DNA from: Candidatus Poribacteria bacterium
Lineage (GTDB): Bacteria; Poribacteria; WGA-4E; WGA-3G
DNA length: 64,000 nt
NCBI GenBank assembly: GCA_963663765.2
Contig: CAXXUA010000005.1
Span: 416,001-480,000, forward strand
Direction of reading: 5' to 3'
In this document: one piece after another, positions 8,898 to 51,219 of the stretch
Numbering within the stretch: position 1 is the stretch's first letter
Layout of the letters: each line of letters opens with the position of its first letter
Program-made: the position numbers and the translations under genes
Notes under the pieces: generated by a model
Database searches by the model: none
What the model was told of the DNA's origin: nothing
Seen by the model: only the letters and a program-made list of their open reading frames with translations

Positions 8898-9053
8898 GTT
8901 AGCGGATAATGTTCTTTATATGTATAGTCACAATAGGAATTCTAACTATAAAACAGATAGACTCAATCTTAGCAAGAAAACAATCTCCCAAGAAGTTTGA
9001 AATGAAGGGAATTAACTGACAATCCCAAGCATTTATGCTTGGGTCAAAAAACG

Positions 9054-9083
9054 TTGACATATATATGTCTTCTATGGTATCCT
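9054..9083 (+). promoter_or_regulatory. Sigma70-type promoter of tnpB element 1
   Basis: TTGACA-18 nt-TATCCT with an extended -10 TG. Confidence 0.55.
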
Positions 9084-9090
9084 TATAGGA

Positions 9091-9144
9091 CTGACTCCGT
9101 GATAGGTGTTGACGCACCTATCACACCACGTCAATGGAAGTCAG
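9091..9144 (+). ncRNA. Putative pseudoknotted 5' leader RNA of tnpB, copy 1
   Basis: P1 CTGACT/AGTCAG; 10-bp P2; loop TTGACG complementary to downstream CGTCAA; same topology at 46371-46422 with compensatory changes. Confidence 0.65.
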
Positions 9145-9163
9145 CACCCTACAAGAGTTAGGT

Positions 9164-10240
9164 ATGCCCTACAAAACACACAAGATTACATTGAATCCGA
9201 ACAACAAACAACGCACATGGTTTGCTCAGCAATGCGGATATGCACGTTTTGCGTATAATCAAGCGTTAGCAGATTTCAAGCGTGGATTAGATAATGACAA
9301 CTTCCAATCGTGGCAAACACTGAACGTCAATTTCAATCAAACGAAAAAGCATTATGATTGGACACGTTCACAAGACCAACGTGCTGCTTTATACGCCATC
9401 AAGAATTTGGGACAAGCAGTTACGAATTGGGTTAACAAACGCACGAAGTTCCCGAAGTTTAAAAAGCGTGGGATTAGGGATACATGGACAACAGACGAAC
9501 AATCTGTGAAAATTGAAGGCAAGAAGGTCCGGTTGCCTAAGGTTGGTTGGGTCAAAATGCGTCAAGCATTGCGTTTTGTAGGGAAGATTATCAGCGTGAC
9601 GATCTCAAGGACAGCACATCGTTGGTTTATATCTATCACTGTAGAAACAGAGGACACCGAAGTCGTTGACAATTCAACGCACCCTGTTATCGGTATAGAT
9701 GTAGGCATCAACACCCTTGCCACCTTGAGTAATGACACGAAATATGAGAATCCAAGACCCTTGAAACGCTATGAGAGAAAACTAAAGAGGGAACAACGCA
9801 AGTTGAGTCGGCGTGTTTTCAAGTCAAAAAACTGGTTCAAGCAGAAACACAAGTTAGAACGTCTCCACTATCGTATCGCTTGTATCCGAAACGATGCACA
9901 CCACAAAGCAACTACAGAGATCGTCAACCTTGCATCTACTATCAGCATTGAGACACTAAAAATAACGAACATGCTAAAGAATAGAAAACTTGCAAAGGCG
10001 TTATCGGATTCAGCGTTAAGCGGGTTTCTCAATAAGCTAAAAACGAAAGCAGATGCTTTCGGAATACCTGTATTACAAGCACCGATATTCTATGCTTCAA
10101 GCAAAACTTGTAGTCGTTGTAGACACAAGAAAGATGATTTGACGCTATCAGAGAGAACTTATCATTGTAATCAATGCGACTATCAAATAGATAGAGACAT
10201 AAATGCTGCAATCAACCTAAGAACCCTCGCTGTCGGATAG
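9164..10240 (+). CDS. tnpB: RNA-guided endonuclease TnpB
   Basis: N-terminal THKI.L.PN HTH; RuvC D (GIDVG), E (IETL) and D (DRDINAA); CxxC...CxxC zinc finger. Start ATG 9164 preferred over 9134 by alignment to copy 2. Confidence 0.93.
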   Translation: MPYKTHKITLNPNNKQRTWFAQQCGYARFAYNQALADFKRGLDNDNFQSWQTLNVNFNQTKKHYDWTRSQDQRAALYAIKNLGQAVTNWVNKRTKFPKFKKRGIRDTWTTDEQSVKIEGKKVRLPKVGWVKMRQALRFVGKIISVTISRTAHRWFISITVETEDTEVVDNSTHPVIGIDVGINTLATLSNDTKYENPRPLKRYERKLKREQRKLSRRVFKSKNWFKQKHKLERLHYRIACIRNDAHHKATTEIVNLASTISIETLKITNMLKNRKLAKALSDSALSGFLNKLKTKADAFGIPVLQAPIFYASSKTCSRCRHKKDDLTLSERTYHCNQCDYQIDRDINAAINLRTLAVG

Positions 10241-10400
10241 ACAGAGAGCATAAACGCTTGTGGAGTCCGAATAAGACCTCACGCAGTTCAGGATAGAGGC
10301 ACGAGAGACGGAAGCAGGAATCACACAGAGGAGAGTTATGTGTTTCAAAGAAGCACACGACTTTAGGCGTCGTGAGTATCACGAATGACTGTATTCCATT
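10232..10400 (+). ncRNA. Putative omegaRNA/reRNA of TnpB element 1 (scaffold plus flank-derived guide; boundaries approximate)
   Basis: Block ACGCTTGTGGAG...ATAAGACC...GGCACGAGA.ACGGAAGCAGGAA is conserved with 47537-47602 and runs into the right end. Confidence 0.6.
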
Positions 10401-11183
10401 ACACTGGTCTTTTGACTACAATCATGGTGCACAGAAACCTGACTTTGCACAAGAATTGACCCAATTACTTCATGGGTATATAGACAATTTTTCTAATGTT
10501 GATTTAAACAGAGATGTAGGTGAGAATTATAGTAGGCAGACTTATCAGATTTTACCGAATTTCTGGCGTGGTTATGTAAGACAGAATAACCCAGAAGGCA
10601 CTTCACATATTGGAAAAGTTGTGGTTGAACGTCAGAAACAGAACGGAGATACTTGGCAATATAGTGTCCAATATAAAAACACGACAAACGGTGAGGATAT
10701 AAGACTACATTTCTGTTGTCGTGATGATGTTTACCGTTCACTCATAGAAAGTTGGACTGTTGAAGTAAACAATAGTTGTATTGACCAATATTCAGGTCTT
10801 AAATTGAAAGGATATATTAGCAAAGACTCTGAGATTCGACTTCGTTATAATGATACGGAAATTACGACTGCAACGTTGGCAAACGCTTTACCATTAACAT
10901 GTAATTGGGCACTTTTTGATGTGATTTCCAATATTTCTGAACAGATTAGAAAGTCTGAAAAAAATGAAACGATTGTGCTTCTTGATGACCTTGAGCAATT
11001 CAGACCAAGGAACACTTTTGGATACCTTGAATCTATTGAATTTCCAATTCCACTTGATGGGTATTACCTCCACGGTATAGGTGCATTACCTTCTTATTGG
11101 TGGGTTGACAAAAACAATAATGTTGCAATTGTATCAAGTGTCTTTGAGACGTTGGTTTTGAGAGAGACAGTGGGAGATTCTCC

Positions 11184-32723: not shown

Positions 32724-32797
<74 letters not shown>

Positions 32798-32810
32798 AGT
32801 TTGAAGAATT

Positions 32811-32885
32811 TGGAGGTGGCGGTCGGAATCGAACCGACGAATAGGAGTTTTGCAGACTCCGGCCTTACCACTTGGCTACGCCACC
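32811..32885 (-). tRNA. tRNA-Cys(GCA), CCA encoded
   Basis: GGTGGCGTAGCCAAGTGG...GGAGT-CT-GCA-AA-ACTCC...GGTTCGATTCC...TCCA. Confidence 0.95.
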
Positions 32886-32892
32886 GAAAGAA

Positions 32893-32964
32893 AGCGGGAG
32901 ACGAGATTTGAACTCGCGACCTCCACCTTGGCAAGGTGGAGCTCTACCACTGAGCTACTCCCGC
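32893..32964 (-). tRNA. tRNA-Gly(GCC), CCA not encoded
   Basis: GCGGGAGTAGCTCAGTGG...CCACC-TT-GCC-AA-GGTGG...GTTCAAATC. Confidence 0.95.
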
Positions 32965-45127: not shown

Positions 45128-46198
45128 ATGAAAAGAACACCGCTTTATGAAGTACACAAGTCCCTATATGCAAAATTCACCGAATTTGGTGGGTGGGAAA
45201 TGCCTTTACAATATAGCAGTATTGTAAAGGAACACCTTGCCGTACGTGAAACTGCAGGCTTGTTTGACCTATCTCACATGGGAGAGATTGACATAAAAGG
45301 GAACGGTGCAAATGAATTAGTGCAAAAACTTACCACAAACGACACCAGTCGACTGGCTGATGGTCAGGTGCAATATACACTAATCTGTAATGAAAGTGGT
45401 GGTATAGTCGATGATATTTTGATTTATAGGTCTGAAGACAATAACTATACACTTGTTGTTAACGCTGCTAACATTGAAAAAGACTTTGATTGGATTAAAA
45501 CACATAATGATACAAAGGCTGAAGTGAAGGATGACAGTGATGATACAGCAATGATTGCACTACAAGGTCCAAGATCAATGGACATACTTGTGCGTTTCAC
45601 TCCCGAAGAACTTGCTTATGAAATCAAGTTCTTTCGGTTTGAAGTTAGTAGGGTTGCAGGAAAAAATACCGCAATTTCAAGAACCGGTTATACGGGTGAA
45701 ATCGGTTTTGAGTTATATCTTAAGTCAGAGGATGCCGAAGATGTGTGGAATGAACTCTATCCAGTTGTGATTGAGGAAGGAGGACTACCAGTCGGTCTTG
45801 GTGCGCGCGATACGTTAAGACTTGAAGCAGGATTACGCTTATACGGTATGGACATGGATGAAAACACAACACCTTATGAAGCAGGACTCGGACGTTTTGT
45901 TAAGTTAGACACAGACGATTTTATCGGTAAAGATGCTCTCCTTGTACAGAAGGACACTGGAGAATTAAAAAAGAAATTAGTTGGTTTTCAAATGTTGGAC
46001 CGTGCTGTTGCGCGTTGTGGGTATACCGTCTATCAGAACGACGAGGTTATCGGCAAAGTGACAAGCGGTGCACCTTCACCGAGTCTGAATTGCAATATTG
46101 GATTTGCATCCATCACAAAAAACTCAGGGAACAACATAGAAATTGAAATTAGAGACAAACTGTACCACGCGAAAATCGTGAAGGTGCCTTTTATTTAA
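45128..46198 (+). CDS. gcvT: Glycine cleavage system T protein
   Basis: FGGWEMP, FDLSHMG, SRTGYTGE.GFE and GLGARDTLRLEAG motifs. Confidence 0.96.
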   Translation: MKRTPLYEVHKSLYAKFTEFGGWEMPLQYSSIVKEHLAVRETAGLFDLSHMGEIDIKGNGANELVQKLTTNDTSRLADGQVQYTLICNESGGIVDDILIYRSEDNNYTLVVNAANIEKDFDWIKTHNDTKAEVKDDSDDTAMIALQGPRSMDILVRFTPEELAYEIKFFRFEVSRVAGKNTAISRTGYTGEIGFELYLKSEDAEDVWNELYPVVIEEGGLPVGLGARDTLRLEAGLRLYGMDMDENTTPYEAGLGRFVKLDTDDFIGKDALLVQKDTGELKKKLVGFQMLDRAVARCGYTVYQNDEVIGKVTSGAPSPSLNCNIGFASITKNSGNNIEIEIRDKLYHAKIVKVPFI

Positions 46199-46370
46199 TG
46201 AAATTACAACATGCTGTGGCAATATTATGGGCTTTTGCACAAAAATCCTATTATGTTTATCAAGAATCACGACAAAACCCCTACCTTTAGGTAGTGGAAT
46301 GTAGTCGTGCTAAGTGCTTGTGTCAAGAAAAAACTTGATTTTGGTTTAAAACATGAGATACTCATTATAC

Positions 46371-46422
46371 CAGTTCAGTGTAGGTGCTACTAACACCTAC
46401 ACACCTTTAGTAGAGGGAACTG
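46371..46422 (+). ncRNA. Putative pseudoknotted 5' leader RNA of tnpB, copy 2
   Basis: P1 CAGTTC/GAACTG; P2 GTGTAGGTG/CACCTACAC; loop CTACTAA complementary to TTAGTAG. Confidence 0.65.
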
Positions 46423-46443
46423 ACGTCTTCATAGGACTGGAAT

Positions 46444-47640
46444 ATGATCATGCTAAAAACACATAAGATTGCATTGAATCCAAATAACAATCAACGAAAA
46501 TGGTTTGCACAACAGTGTGGCTATGCGAGATTTGCATATAATCATGCATTAGCAGATTTCAAGTCTGCATTGGCAAATGATGAGTTCTTATCCGCTGCGA
46601 AGTTAAACACTCGATTTAATATTGCTAAGAAAGCACATGCTTGGACTAAAGATATGGATCAGGTTGTAGCCAATAAAAGCATATTTGGTAACTTGTCTGC
46701 TGCGCTTGCGAATTGGGTTGGTAAACGTGCGAAGTTTCCGAAGTTCAAGAAGCGTGGCAAAAAGGACGCATTCACCACAAATAATCAATCTGTAGAAGTT
46801 GAAGGTAAGCGTATCAAACTTCCTAAGATTGGTTGGATTAGAATGTTTGAATCATTGCGTTTTGTGGGTAAGATTATGAAAGTGACGATCTCAAGGACAG
46901 CACATCGTTGGTTTGTATCTATCACCATAGAAACAGAGGACACCGAAGCAGTTGATAACTCAACGCACCCTGTGATTGGTATAGATGTAGGCATAAACAC
47001 ACTTGCCACATTGAGTGATGGCACGAAATATGATAATCCAAGACCCCTGAAACGATATGAAAAGAAGTTAGCAAGAGAACAACGTAGATTAAGTAGAAAA
47101 GTTTTCAAGTCTAACAACTGGTTCAAACAAAAACACAAGTTAGAACGTATCTATTATCGTATCGCTTGTATCCGAAACGATGCACATCATAAAGCAACTA
47201 CAGAGATTGTCAACCTCACATCCGCGATCGGTATTGAGACACTCAAGGTTACTAATATGCTGAAGAACAGAAACCTCGCAAAAGCATTGTCAGATACAGC
47301 ATTAGGCGGTTTCCTGCTAAAACTCAAGACAAAAGCGGAAGTGCGCGGTATACCTGTCAAAGAAGCAGATATGTTCTTTGCAAGTAGTAAAACCTGTTCC
47401 GGTTGTGGACACAAAAAGAAAGACCTAACACTTTCAGAAAGAATGTATCACTGCAGTCAATGTGATATGTCTATAGATAGAGATGTCAACGCTGCAATAA
47501 ACTTGAAACCAACTACGGTGGGACACACCGAAGGTCACGCCTGTGGAGTGCAAATAAGACCCAACGCTGTTCAGAAAAGGGCACGAGACACGGAAGCAGG
47601 AAAAGTCGTTTGGAAACAACTCAAACCGTTTCCAATATAA
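46444..47640 (+). CDS. tnpB: RNA-guided endonuclease TnpB; C-terminus reads through the omegaRNA region
   Basis: GIDVG, IETL, DRDVNAA and a zinc finger; paralog of 9164-10240. Confidence 0.93.
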   Translation: MIMLKTHKIALNPNNNQRKWFAQQCGYARFAYNHALADFKSALANDEFLSAAKLNTRFNIAKKAHAWTKDMDQVVANKSIFGNLSAALANWVGKRAKFPKFKKRGKKDAFTTNNQSVEVEGKRIKLPKIGWIRMFESLRFVGKIMKVTISRTAHRWFVSITIETEDTEAVDNSTHPVIGIDVGINTLATLSDGTKYDNPRPLKRYEKKLAREQRRLSRKVFKSNNWFKQKHKLERIYYRIACIRNDAHHKATTEIVNLTSAIGIETLKVTNMLKNRNLAKALSDTALGGFLLKLKTKAEVRGIPVKEADMFFASSKTCSGCGHKKKDLTLSERMYHCSQCDMSIDRDVNAAINLKPTTVGHTEGHACGVQIRPNAVQKRARDTEAGKVVWKQLKPFPI

Positions 47641-47963
47641 GAACTAAGAACCCCAATGTTTTAGCTTGGGGAGTATGTCAGTCGTTCCAGTAGTATTATT
47701 TACAATCCCATGTTCACAGTTTATCTCAGATAATCCTACGGCAAAAGAAATATACCCAAATATTGGGAAATGAAACCTATCAGATCCATTCAATTGTCCA
47801 AAATCATTCTTGTGGGAAGGGTTTGGAACCTTGAATTCAGATCCTCTGTAAAAAATTCGGAGTTATAAAAACATTCAAACAAAGAAATTTTATGACAAAT
47901 GAATGTCTCTGTGAAACCTATTGGATTATTTAACGACAACATAAAAACGTGAAGGAAACATAG

Positions 47964-48350
47964 ATGATTCCAAAGAATTTAAAATACAATGAAAGCCATG
48001 AATGGGTTAGACAAGAGGACGACATCGCTACTATAGGCATCACAGACTATGCACAATCCGAAATACAGGATATAGTCTTCGTTGAATTGCCAGATGTCGG
48101 AACACATATCACACAGAAGACAGAATTCGGAGTAATAGAATCTGTCAAAGCAGCCTTTGATCTATACGCACCTGTCAGTGGAGAAGTAATTGAAGTGAAC
48201 GAATCTCTACTTGATGCTCCAGAACAAATCAATGAATCTCCTTACGATGACGGTTGGTTTCTCAAAATCAAGATGACAGATTCCAATGAACTTGACGAAC
48301 TGCTTGATGCTAATGATTATCAAGCACATATTGAGGCGGAGCATGCTTGA
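47964..48350 (+). CDS. gcvH: Glycine cleavage system H protein
   Basis: HEWV, GITDYAQ and ESVKA lipoyl-lysine motifs. Confidence 0.96.
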
Positions 48351-51219
48351 AAAGGAAAAGTTTAACTTCGCTGATCGGCACATAGGTCCTTGGCCTGAGG
48401 ACGTTCAACAGATGCTGACAACACTCGGATATACTTCAATGGAAGCATTCATTGAGGATGTTGTCCCGTCAGATATACGTTTAACCTCCCCACAAAGTCT
48501 AAACATCGGTGAAAAAGCCAACTACTCTCAAGGTCTTTCAGAGGATGAAGTAGTTGAAGCATTAAAACACCTTGCGAGCCAGAATCAAGTTTACCGTTCC
48601 TATATCGGAATGGGTTACTATGACTGCTTCGTTCCCCCAGTCATCCAAAGAAACATCCTTGAAAATCCCGGTTGGTATACCCAATACACACCCTATCAAG
48701 CAGAAATTTCTCAAGGTCGTTTAGAAGCGTTGCTCAACTTCCAAACAATGGTGATAGATTTAACCGGACTGCCTGTCGCCAATGCTTCACTGCTTGATGA
48801 GGCTACTGCTGCAGCAGAAGCTATGGGAATGTGTTATGCAAATGTACCAAGTGAGATCAGTCGTATCTTTTTTGTATCAGAAACCTGCCATCCGCAAACA
48901 ATCGCTGTACTGCAGACACGTGCAGAACCCCTCGGCATTGAGTTAATTATCGGTAATCATTGGGATGTCAATTTTGACACACCAATATTAGGTGCAATCG
49001 TTCAGTATCCCGCAACGGACGGATCGATTTATGATTACCAACAATTCGCTGAACAGGTGCATGCAGCAGGTGGATTATTTGTTACTGCAACAGACCTTTT
49101 AGCACTCATGCTCTTGAAACCGCCAAGTGAATTCGGAGCAGACATTGCCATTGGCAACTCACAACGGTTTGGTGTTCCACTCGGATATGGGGGTCCGCAT
49201 GCAGCATTTCTCTCTACGCATGAAGAACTCAAACGCAGCATCCCTGGTCGGATTGCTGGTGTCTCACACGATGCAAACGGGAATCCTGCAATCCGTTTAG
49301 CACTCCAGACACGTGAACAACACATCCGACGCGAAAAGGCTACGAGCAACATCTGTACAGCACAAGTACTCCTTGCAGTGATGGCAGGTATGTATGCAGT
49401 TTATCATGGTCCTAAAGGACTTAGACAGATTGCTGACCGTGTCCATACGCTAACTTGTACTCTACGTAATGAACTTGATCAACTCGGTTTTCCTACTGGA
49501 GATACCCCCTGTTTTGATACACTCTATGTTAATGTTGGTACACAAAATATTAAAAAAATACTTAATACTGCTAAAGCAAAACAGGTCAATCTACGTGCAA
49601 TTGATTCATCACACATTGGTATTTCACTTGACGAAACTACGACACATGCTGATGTTGAAGACTTGATAAGACTCTTTCCAAATAATACTACTGAAAAACA
49701 AGACAACAAACCTATTGAAATTAATATCCCTAAAGAATTACGACGTACAACCCCATGTCTTACCCATCCTGTTTTCAATAGTTATCATTCTGAAACAGAG
49801 ATGCTCAGATATATCCATAGATTGCAAACGAAAGACCTTTCTCTCGTAAACGCAATGATACCACTCGGTTCTTGCACCATGAAACTCAACGCGACAACAG
49901 AAATGGTGCCTGTCACATGGCAAGAATTCGGGGGTTTGCATCCATTCGTTCCAAGTGAACAGGCACAAGGATATCATATCTTATTTGAACAGTTAGAAAC
50001 ATGGTTAGCAGAGATTACTGGTTATAGTGGTATTTCATTGCAACCAAATGCTGGCTCACAAGGGGAATATGCAGGATTGTTAGTCATCCGGAAATACCAT
50101 CAAAGTCGAAACGAAGACCATCGCGATGTGTGCCTTATACCAACATCAGCACACGGCACAAACCCCGCAAGTGCAGTTATGGCGGGTATGAAAGTTGTCG
50201 TCGTCGCATGTGATACAGAAGGTAACATTGATATAAATGATCTACAAGAAAAAGCTGAAGAAAATCAAGAAACACTTTCCGCAGCGATGATTACCTATCC
50301 TTCAACGCACGGTGTTTTTGAAGAGAATATCCATGAGATCTGTGCAATCGTTCATCAATACGGGGGTCAGGTATATATGGATGGTGCGAATCTCAATGCA
50401 CTTGTCGGATTGAGTCAACCTGCAGCCCTCGGTGCTGATGTCTGCCATCTCAATTTACACAAGACGTTCTGTATTCCACACGGAGGCGGCGGTCCAGGTA
50501 TGGGACCTATCGGTGTGAAGGCACATCTAACAAATTTCTTACCTAATCATCCTATCGTCAAAGTCGGGGGAACCCATGGAATTGGACCTGTGTCGGCAGC
50601 ACCCTGGGGAAGTCCAGGAATTCTACCTATCTCATGGACATACATTGCGATGATGGGAGCAGATGGACTTAAATATGCAACAGAAGTTGCTATCCTGAAT
50701 GCAAATTATATAGCCAAACAACTAGAAACACATTATCCTGTGCTTTACACAGGTAAAAATGGATTGGTTGCACATGAATGTATCATTGATTTACGCAACT
50801 ATAAGAAAACCGCAGGTATAGATGTAACGGATGTTGCAAAACGTCTCATGGATTACGGTTTCCACGCTCCTACAGTATCTTGGCCCGTTCTCGGTACAAT
50901 GATGATTGAGCCTACTGAAAGCGAATCTAAAGAAGAAATTGATCGTTTCTGTGATGCTCTTATTGCTATACGTGAAGAAATCGCAGAAATTGAAAATGGC
51001 AATGCAGACAGAGATGATAATGTCTTGATAAACGCTCCACATACTGTAGAATCAGTTACACAAACTGACTGGGATCATCCCTATTCACGTGAAAAAGCTG
51101 CATTTCCAAAACCTTGGGTACGACAAAGAAAATTTTGGTCTTCAGTTGCACGAATTAACGAAGTTCATGGAGACAGAAACCTTGTTTGTTCCTGTCCACC
51201 ACTCGCAGAATACGAATAA
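48343..51219 (+). CDS. gcvP: Glycine dehydrogenase (single-chain P protein)
   Basis: [31 protein letters not shown] and HLNLHKTF motifs; ATG 48343 follows a GAGG RBS. Confidence 0.96.

Follow-up and report, generated by a model that had tools for sequence, protein, structure and literature searches.

The stretch of DNA considered here, a window of 64,000 nucleotides (nt) from a contig of a Candidatus Poribacteria bacterium (CAXXUA010000005.1), contains two tnpB genes, and in front of each of them lies a short segment that can be folded into the same arrangement of helices. Two questions follow from this arrangement: whether the segment is a genuine structure, and what it might do at the 5′ end of a gene for an RNA-guided nuclease. 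TnpB is the ancestor of Cas12, and its gene is among the most abundant in prokaryotes. The first question has a plain answer, in that the leader fold is a real, conserved and co-varying structure on the sense strand, located between the promoter and the tnpB start. For the second we favour, with about even confidence, a cis-acting and possibly bistable 5′ leader of the messenger RNA (mRNA) of stand-alone (tnpA-less) tnpB genes of the IS200/IS605 type, one that would throttle TnpB translation and protect the 5′ end of the transcript.

A co-varying fold between promoter and tnpB

The fold consists of an outer helix (P1) that closes around a hairpin (P2), the loop of which (segment c) is complementary to a segment further downstream (c′) that is reached through a short linker. 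The parts in the two copies, in coordinates of the window, are given below; the helices, loops, partners and linkers listed in the earlier note, a first reading of the letters, were all found to be in place.

9091–9097, plus strand: copy 1, 5′ strand of P1, CTGACTC (core CTGACT, 9091–9096), which pairs with a proximal strand at 9139–9144 or a distal one at 9155–9161
9099–9124, plus strand: copy 1, P2 hairpin, GTGATAGGTG (9099–9108) with CACCTATCAC (9115–9124), around loop c, TTGACG (9109–9114)
9125–9137, plus strand: copy 1, linker ACCA (9125–9128), segment c′, CGTCAA (9129–9134), complementary to the P2 loop, and TGG (9135–9137)
9139–9144, plus strand: copy 1, proximal 3′ strand of P1, AGTCAG
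46370–46376, plus strand: copy 2, 5′ strand of P1, CCAGTTC (core CAGTTC, 46371–46376)
46378–46402, plus strand: copy 2, P2 hairpin, GTGTAGGTG (46378–46386) with CACCTACAC (46394–46402), around loop c, CTACTAA (46387–46393)
46403–46416, plus strand: copy 2, linker ACCT (46403–46406), segment c′, TTAGTAG (46407–46413), complementary to the P2 loop, and AGG; CCT and AGG form a mini-stem, P3
46417–46422, plus strand: copy 2, proximal 3′ strand of P1, GAACTG

In copy 1 the corresponding CCA and TGG are able to pair as a P3 of 3 base pairs (bp) enclosing c′. The pairing sequences of the two copies had been described as almost wholly different, which is too strong for P2: the lowest three pairs of this hairpin (GUG/CAC), together with the ACC that follows, are nearly invariant. 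Few of the unpaired nucleotides are conserved, the strands at the junctions are only 0–1 nt long, and the conserved nucleotides number about a dozen overall (CAGUG, CACACC and GGG).

Both P1 and P2 are found by RNAfold, with folding z-scores of −2.87 for copy 1 and −2.82 for copy 2, and RNAalifold, given a plain MAFFT alignment of 34 leaders, returned 14 pairs in P1 and P2, of which 11 show compensatory changes. A covariance model (R1) was then built from P1 and P2 alone, leaving out the helix between the loop and its downstream partner; it gave 62 matches in 91 sources, and the 58 distinct leaders among these constitute the covariation alignment. Standard pairs fill 94.2% of the cells in this alignment and 20 of the 25 pairs change on both sides, and on none of five covariation measures was the observed value attained by any of 500 shuffles. 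As a control, sliding the partners by 1–3 columns left only 35–45% of cells paired. The loop helix c/c′, which was absent from the model, co-varies in all six of its pairs, and 90.2% of its cells can pair. What the earlier note had taken to be beyond chance from two copies is therefore borne out by the wider set of homologues, including the co-varying loop-to-downstream pairing by which a classical H-type pseudoknot is recognised.

The loop helix was also assessed without any alignment. Cognate loops and partners form a mean of 5.93 contiguous Watson–Crick pairs (27 distinct loops) versus 2.83 in 698 non-cognate combinations, and none of 5000 permutations was as high as the cognate value; L050 and L079, in which P2 and the loop pairing are deleted, were excluded from this test and from the corresponding test of distal pairing described below. 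A sister copy in the same genome represents a third variant of the leader in which loop and partner have exchanged places, CGTCAA/TTGACG as against TTGACG/CGTCAA in copy 1. In the P3 mini-stem, of the form CCN/N′GG, the third pair co-varies as well (AU in 25 leaders, UA in 16, GC in 6, UG in 2 and other combinations in 5). Finally, G-U cells exceed A-C cells, by 45 to 15 in P1 and P2 and by 54 to 32 over all helices, and the structure therefore belongs to the sense strand.

The fold sits in a fixed order of elements that is the same in both copies, which is, from 5′ to 3′, a left-end hairpin, a promoter-like site, the leader fold and tnpB:

9024–9043, plus strand: copy 1, left-end subterminal hairpin CCCAAGCATTTATGCTTGGG, a transposon-end DNA structure outside the leader RNA
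9054–9083, plus strand: copy 1, promoter, with −35 box TTGACA (9054–9059), an 18-nt spacer and a TG-extended −10 box TATCCT (9078–9083), found by promoter scan with 10 of 12 matches
9164–10240, plus strand: copy 1, tnpB, 358 amino acids, with the domains OrfB_IS605, Cas12f1-like TNB and HTH_OrfB
46278–46297, plus strand: copy 2, left-end subterminal hairpin CCCCTACCTTTAGGTAGTGG
46335–46362, plus strand: copy 2, putative promoter, with TTGATT (46335–46340), a 16-nt spacer and a TG-extended GATACT (46357–46362), found by a looser rule with 8 of 12 matches
46450–47640, plus strand: copy 2, tnpB, 396 amino acids from ATG 46450, with the domains OrfB_IS605, Cas12f1-like TNB and HTH_OrfB

The leader is thus a separate structure from the left-end hairpin and from the omegaRNA at the 3′ end, as had been maintained from the beginning. 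The claim that a promoter precedes each leader fared unevenly: the scan supports it for copy 1, whereas copy 2 lies below the scan threshold and satisfies only the looser rule. A simple −35/−10 rule applied to the 58 distinct leaders recognised a pair of boxes in 36 and none in the other 22, and in 35 of those 36 the distance from the end of the −10 box to P1 is exactly 7 nt, the sole exception being a leader with a replaced upstream region. The usual spacing of sigma-70 promoters would put the transcript start at or beside P1, and it is predicted from this spacing that the RNA begins at, or within a nucleotide of, the 5′ strand of P1. A consensus scan, which is weak evidence, found no promoter-like site on the minus strand within either leader; the single minus-strand site of copy 2 lies upstream of the leader, at 46326–46298.

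The two TnpB proteins are 73% identical, and alignment of homologues fixes the start of copy 1 tnpB at ATG 9164, so that the in-frame ATG at 9134 given in the list of open reading frames (ORFs) is not the start. A leader peptide beginning at ATG 9134, in frame with copy 1 tnpB, was considered and rejected because this ATG is missing or out of frame in homologues. For copy 2, conservation points to ATG 46450 as the start; a further ATG is present at 46444, where most sister copies have ATC.

A second partner for the 5′ strand of P1

A feature absent from the earlier note is a second copy of the 3′ strand of P1, which lies 10–20 nt past the first and just before the start codon:

9155–9161, plus strand: copy 1, distal repeat GAGTTAG, the second copy of the 3′ strand of P1 (sister copies have GGAGTCAG), 2 nt from the start codon and overlapping a Shine–Dalgarno-like sequence
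46434–46440, plus strand: copy 2, distal repeat GGACTGG, able to pair over its whole length with CCAGTTC, one of the pairs being G-U, 9 nt before ATG 46450 and used by the minimum free energy (MFE) fold

The distal repeat tracks the 5′ strand of P1 across lineages. CTACTTC occurs with GAAGTAG twice and CTGTTTC with GAAACAG twice, and the 5′ strand CCGTATC is found with the partners GATGCGG and GATACGG. Over 17 distinct P1 types, the 5′ strand forms 6.53 contiguous pairs with its own distal region versus 4.94 with those of others (0 of 5000 permutations), and a second model, which was fitted to the distal pairing, shows two-sided changes in five of six pairs, with 81.0% of cells paired. When the proximal strand is blocked, the 5′ strand forms at least 5 pairs with its distal partner in 40 of 51 unique leaders, and in 38 of those 40 the end of the distal helix falls 2–10 nt before the ATG. 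A Shine–Dalgarno-like tetramer is present in 37 of the 51 leaders and is overlapped by the distal helix in 31.

The two pairings appear to be closely balanced. Predicted mean energies are −24.6 kcal/mol for the proximal state and −24.7 kcal/mol for the distal one, which makes them iso-energetic, and the MFE fold pairs the 5′ strand distally in 29 leaders and proximally in 16, using neither partner in the remaining 6. The sets of 51 leaders used for energy and occlusion omit L050, L079, L048, L007 and L067, and also L055 and L076, for which the start-codon pattern failed.

Several natural variants of this region were encountered. In L048 the segment between the direct repeats has been lost, with one copy left beside the ATG, and in L064 and L070 a loss of 5 nt has occurred by slippage between CACCA repeats. 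In a sister copy of copy 2 (G000:C13:697722-697818), about 85 nt have been inserted after the leader fold and ahead of the start region; this insert contains a palindrome of the type GGTGCGGTT..AACCGCAC, and in L068, from another genome (approximately 1090–1140), the same palindrome in the opposite orientation replaces the promoter and P1. The palindrome may represent a small mobile element with these leaders as landing sites.

Distribution among TnpB lineages

The source genome (6.35 Mb in 15 contigs) contains 45 TnpB matches, and each of the 28 matches to the R1 model in this genome is immediately followed, on its own strand, by a TnpB match. The 45 matches represent at least four families. 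The copy 1 type accounts for about 6 of them and the copy 2 type for about 20; smaller groups are found at 28–34% identity, some of them beside Y1 tnpA (6 tnpA matches), as well as five ORFs of 550 amino acids at 25%. The association of the leader with stand-alone tnpB is exclusive. The tnpA-linked tnpB of the source genome has no such leader, and its tnpA is preceded by a short plain leader only. Since the Y1 transposase genes of the genome adjoin this other, tnpA-linked family, the elements studied here are tnpB-only. A left-end hairpin with a CTTTAG-type loop is found in the homologues, in the tnpB-only elements and in the tnpA-carrying element alike, and this shared type of end, judged by sequence, suggests that the tnpB-only elements may be mobilised in trans.

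A protein scan with one genome per species gave 80 loci, all titled Candidatus Poribacteria, with TnpB proteins 50–83% identical, and the upstream regions of related loci show the same topology with changed helix sequences. The model of this short form matches 46 of 151 genomes sampled from the phylum (g1, 32 of 37; g2, 12 of 57; g9, 1 of 20; and none in 19 other genera), and these 46 genomes together contain some 280 matches. More distant relatives, at 50–62% identity (L081, L085, L086 and L093–L109), carry a long form, which has the same order of elements with an extra hairpin after loop segment c and a linker of 5–6 nt; the long form also occurs in two other TnpB families of the source genome, at 31–34% identity. 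Twelve long-form leaders were examined with a helix finder. A c/c′ helix of at least 6 contiguous pairs was found in 11 (not in L097), P1 in 11 (not in L086) and a P2 of at least 6 contiguous pairs in 9 (not in L093, L100 or L101). Their c/c′ sequences mostly differ, with ATGTCG/CGACAT common to L099 and L104 and ATATCAC/GTGATAT common to L096 and L101.

Outside the phylum, where the relatives are samples and so do not prove absence, the motif was found only in close metagenome relatives of one distant family. Convincing leaders are those of L142, L143, L144 and L146 (detector score 59, proteins 76–78% identical), to which L145 (57%) can be added by eye. When 75 metagenome relatives of the L120 protein were tested, 8 scored at least 45, including L162, L191, L193 and L212, which have an atypical geometry and whose scores of 45–46 stand just above the maximum of 41 in 90 mononucleotide shuffles. 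The motif was not found in sampled relatives at 43% identity or below. Among 8 plasmid TnpB relatives (37–43% identity), 6 sit after an upstream transposase or recombinase ORF and the 2 that stand alone (L116 and L118) show no such fold by eye or by RNAfold; nor was it seen in 8 relatives from viral contigs, and a viral scan with the L119 protein found no relative. Two of the viral-contig loci, L124 and L131, have a different, simple leader in the form of a 9–10 bp hairpin, CCTTTCACTT/AAGTGAAAGG, that includes the Shine–Dalgarno-like AAAGGAAG before the start codon, which is to say a sequestering stem like that of IS200.

A quick TnpB tree of 46 rows, with some long branches and with L139, L147 and L191 (no start, or partial) left out, puts the leader-bearing proteins in two places that lie apart, namely a clade of 18 with support of 100 and a starred group of four, in which L119, L120 and L142 are joined by the leaderless, tnpA-linked L030 of the source genome. 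Between the two places lie leaderless TnpB proteins from plasmids, viral contigs and metagenomes. The leader label needs three changes on this tree, at least two of which are forced by the starred branches. Either the leader may be old, with losses wherever tnpB came to be linked to a transposase gene, or a module of left end and leader may have moved between TnpB lineages within the phylum.

What the leader may do

The leader corresponds to no family in Rfam 15. At gathering score the only matches in the window are three tRNAs, and at E ≤ 10 nothing was found on the leader in the regions 8950–10450 and 46200–47950. IS605-orfB-I (RF03065), which belongs to Rfam 15 (PMC11701678), does not match the leader at either level. 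IS605-orfB-I, RAGATH-18 and the omegaRNA (or reRNA) resemble the leader in being structured motifs tied to IS605 orfB (tnpB) and found by comparative analysis; unlike the omegaRNA and RAGATH-18, which are 3′ motifs, the leader lies 5′ of the ORF and has no pairing to the 3′ region. A structured 5′ leader of tnpB is not described in the literature searched, where work on the control of tnpB expression concerned only the 3′ omegaRNA and its processing; the supplements of PMC10278001 and PMC10055086 could hold data on transposon ends or 5′ regions.

The closest known system, described in PMC4513863, is the 5′ untranslated region (UTR) of IS200 tnpA, in which a stem-loop sequesters the Shine–Dalgarno sequence and limits transposition, beside the antisense small RNA art200, and for which the same source also proposes an alternative, non-sequestering fold. 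Going by that account, both are 5′ UTR structures in the left end of an IS200/IS605-family element, on the downstream side of a subterminal hairpin. In IS200 a strand upstream of the ribosome-binding region pairs with it and so limits translation of the element's protein; a comparable pairing is predicted for the present leaders, in which the distal helix meets the Shine–Dalgarno-like tetramer in 31 of 51, with a competing proximal pairing. The differences are that the gene is tnpB rather than tnpA, that the leader has a 5′ closing helix, an inner hairpin with a co-varying loop pairing and two copies of the 3′ strand, that the scan found no antisense promoter like that of art200, and that there is no relation in sequence or in Rfam. 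In the fold-back inhibition of IS10 and IS50 transposase mRNAs, too, expression of a transposon gene is limited by an upstream strand that base-pairs with the region where its translation starts, but there, as these elements are usually described, the inhibitory strand lies upstream of the element's own transcription start and acts on read-through transcripts only, whereas in the leader the strand is predicted to form the very beginning of the RNA that the element itself initiates. In a few leaders (L046, L051 and L057) bases ahead of the predicted start also take part in the distal helix, and read-through RNAs would therefore be sequestered more strongly.

On the reading that we favour, two states would be in competition. 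In the first, the 5′ strand would occupy the proximal copy of its partner, giving the compact fold of P1, P2 and c/c′ and leaving the ribosome-binding region free; in the second, it would move to the distal copy, placing the Shine–Dalgarno region within a helix. The balance of the two would set a low, gated level of TnpB translation from a strong promoter, and a promoter of that strength would be required by the abundant omegaRNA, which is processed out of this same RNA. In both states the 5′ end of the RNA would be base-paired and hence shielded from decay that depends on a 5′ end. Switching, and the effects on translation and stability, are inferred from the pairings rather than observed as the helices are. 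The proposal in the earlier note of a cis-regulatory 5′ RNA thus remains the best reading, strengthened by the co-varying distal repeat at the start codon, and its alternative of a small ribozyme has fallen away for the reasons given below.

RNA contigs from four sponge-associated libraries (three studies), from which starts and strand are not resolvable, bear on the relation between the nuclease and its guide. Contig depth on copy 2 is about 15 over the leader and ORF versus 500–950 over 47455–47674, so the guide RNA is far more abundant than the mRNA body of the same transcript. Sequencing-adapter sequence follows directly after 47614 and 47634, and the region 47455–47674 is probably the abundant omegaRNA, with 3′ ends near those two positions. 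A weak RAGATH-18 match (47540–47602, E 1.8) falls within the 3′ end of copy 2, the expected location of the omegaRNA. Pairing between the leader and the omegaRNA was considered and rejected, as there is no notable shared or complementary stretch of at least 8 nt between the leader and the rest of either element, and when the loop and partner words of 21 distinct elements were looked for in the 3′ region of the same element, 1 and 2 cases were found, versus 8–10% for non-cognate pairs.

Several observations weigh against the two-state leader as just described. Fewer cells pair in the distal helix than in the proximal one (81.0% versus 94.2%), and the distal alignment leans towards the structure to which it was fitted. 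A good distal partner is missing in 11 of 51 leaders and a Shine–Dalgarno-like tetramer in 14, and occlusion of the start region (−15 to +3) differs only modestly between the states, with 6.4 versus 8.3 of 18 nt paired. The excess of G-U over A-C cells would be expected equally of an RNA and of the top DNA strand of the transposon. The RNA contigs also cover 46255–46365, upstream of the predicted start, at the same depth as the leader, and read-through or DNA carry-over may account for this. We know of no signal or factor that flips the proposed switch.

A further point on the same side concerns geometry. The linker is 4 nt long (5–6 nt in the long form) and has to span a P2 of 8–13 bp, and by the usual requirements for loop lengths in pseudoknots 4 nt is probably too short for a loop helix of 6–7 bp to form on top of an intact P2 of 9–10 bp, so the fold may not be a classical pseudoknot. 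The leader resembles H-type pseudoknots and kissing-loop junctions such as L2–L3 of the purine riboswitch in that a hairpin loop pairs with a downstream segment presented by a stem, with an outer helix closing the whole. It differs from them in the 4-nt linker over a 9–10 bp stem and in a mini-stem of only 2–3 pairs, which would make for a poor geometric fit, as well as in having no evident ligand-binding core; a P3 of this size would be unable to present its loop to the P2 loop side by side. Two ways around this can be envisioned: either the lower pairs of P2 (GUG/CAC) open, with ACC serving as the crossing strand, or c/c′ and the full P2 alternate.

The rival that survives best, although we regard it as unlikely, is a static stabiliser in which P1 and P2 keep the 5′ end of the precursor paired and slow its decay, the distal repeat is spare or incidental, and there is no switch. 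Stem-loops at the 5′ terminus are known to stabilise bacterial mRNAs, and the fixed 7-nt spacing between the −10 box and P1, seen in 35 of the 36 leaders with a recognised promoter, would place the first nucleotides of the RNA in a helix. The scarcity of conserved unpaired nucleotides and the near equality of start-region occlusion in the two states also fit this explanation well. A stabiliser, however, needs neither a co-varying loop pairing nor a co-varying second partner that overlaps the Shine–Dalgarno-like tetramer in 31 of 51 leaders, and L050 and L079, which have lost P2 and the loop pairing, nevertheless retain the 5′ strand and both of its partners.

Distinctly less probable is an operator, in which TnpB, the TnpB–omegaRNA complex or a host factor of Poribacteria would recognise GUG/CAC, ACC and GG(G) as a putative site, such that binding shifts the balance between the two P1 pairings and leads to autoregulation. 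The near invariance of the lowest three P2 pairs and of ACC/GGG, in helices whose remaining positions vary freely, is what a binding site would look like, and the fact that leader-bearing TnpB proteins occupy two places in the tree and all come from Poribacteria or from close relatives in metagenomes may indicate a role tied to the host. Conservation of sequence is equally explained, however, by tertiary contacts within the RNA, and there is no relation in sequence or pairing to the element's own 3′ omegaRNA region. A broader version, to which we also assign only a small probability, is a two-state riboregulator module specific to the host lineage that has moved between two distant Poribacteria TnpB lineages, with its pseudoknotted core read by a signal in trans, whether TnpB–omegaRNA, a Poribacteria-specific factor or a small molecule; a new small ribozyme would be a less likely version of the same idea.

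It is very unlikely that the fold acts as single-stranded DNA, that is, as a structure of the transposon's top strand near the left end that is used in TnpA-mediated excision or integration, or in replication. Elements of the IS200/IS605 family do transpose as single-stranded DNA using subterminal hairpins, as described in PMC10055086, the leader lies about 50–70 nt inside the left-end hairpin, and the strand bias is compatible with the top DNA strand. The leader is locked to expression signals, however, rather than to the transposon end: it begins 7 nt from the −10 box and its partner strand lies 2–10 nt from the start codon, whereas its distance to the left-end hairpin varies between families. 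The tnpA-carrying element has the same type of left-end hairpin without such a structure, and the 54 G-T cells that the helices would contain as DNA would be weak. Least probable of all is a new class of self-cleaving ribozyme or metabolite riboswitch, for which the compact pseudoknot-like fold with its dozen or so conserved nucleotides and the riboswitch-like design of a bistable expression platform might be cited, since no Rfam ribozyme (hammerhead, twister, pistol, hatchet and HDV-like among them) or riboswitch of any class matches the leader at E ≤ 10, junctions of 0–1 nt leave no obvious pocket, the strand order a-b-c-b′-c′-a′ appears to differ from that of the hammerhead, HDV-like, twister and pistol classes, and there is no rationale that ties a metabolite to TnpB.

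The leader probably controls the amount of TnpB nuclease that is made. As a motif it is new to Rfam 15 and to the literature searched and can be regarded as a variant of the structures by which transposon 5′ UTRs control expression, with a two-partner mechanism that is plausible on the modelled pairings. It would offer a concrete example of 5′ control of stand-alone tnpB, in which a strong promoter serves an abundant guide RNA and a structured leader limits the nuclease. With more than 20 distinct loop-pairing helices, strand swaps included, it is well suited to an Rfam family, to structure probing and to use as a compact regulatory part. The presence of the leader in two distant TnpB lineages of one phylum, and not in the sampled leaderless relatives elsewhere, raises the question of whether modules have been exchanged or a host-specific factor is involved, and a switch that responds to a signal in trans, if true, would make the leader the first sensor dedicated to the control of an RNA-guided nuclease of transposons.

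The two elements occupy different genomic surroundings. Copy 1 comes just after an endonuclease V gene. Copy 2 is inserted in a glycine-cleavage cluster, between gcvT (45128–46198) and gcvH (47964–48350), after which comes an ORF of 977 amino acids (48286–51219); element and cluster point the same way, so transcription could run on from the cluster into the element and from the element back into the cluster. Elsewhere in the window, the minus strand of 32724–32964 carries the cluster of three tRNAs, which match the Rfam tRNA family with 65–73 bits.

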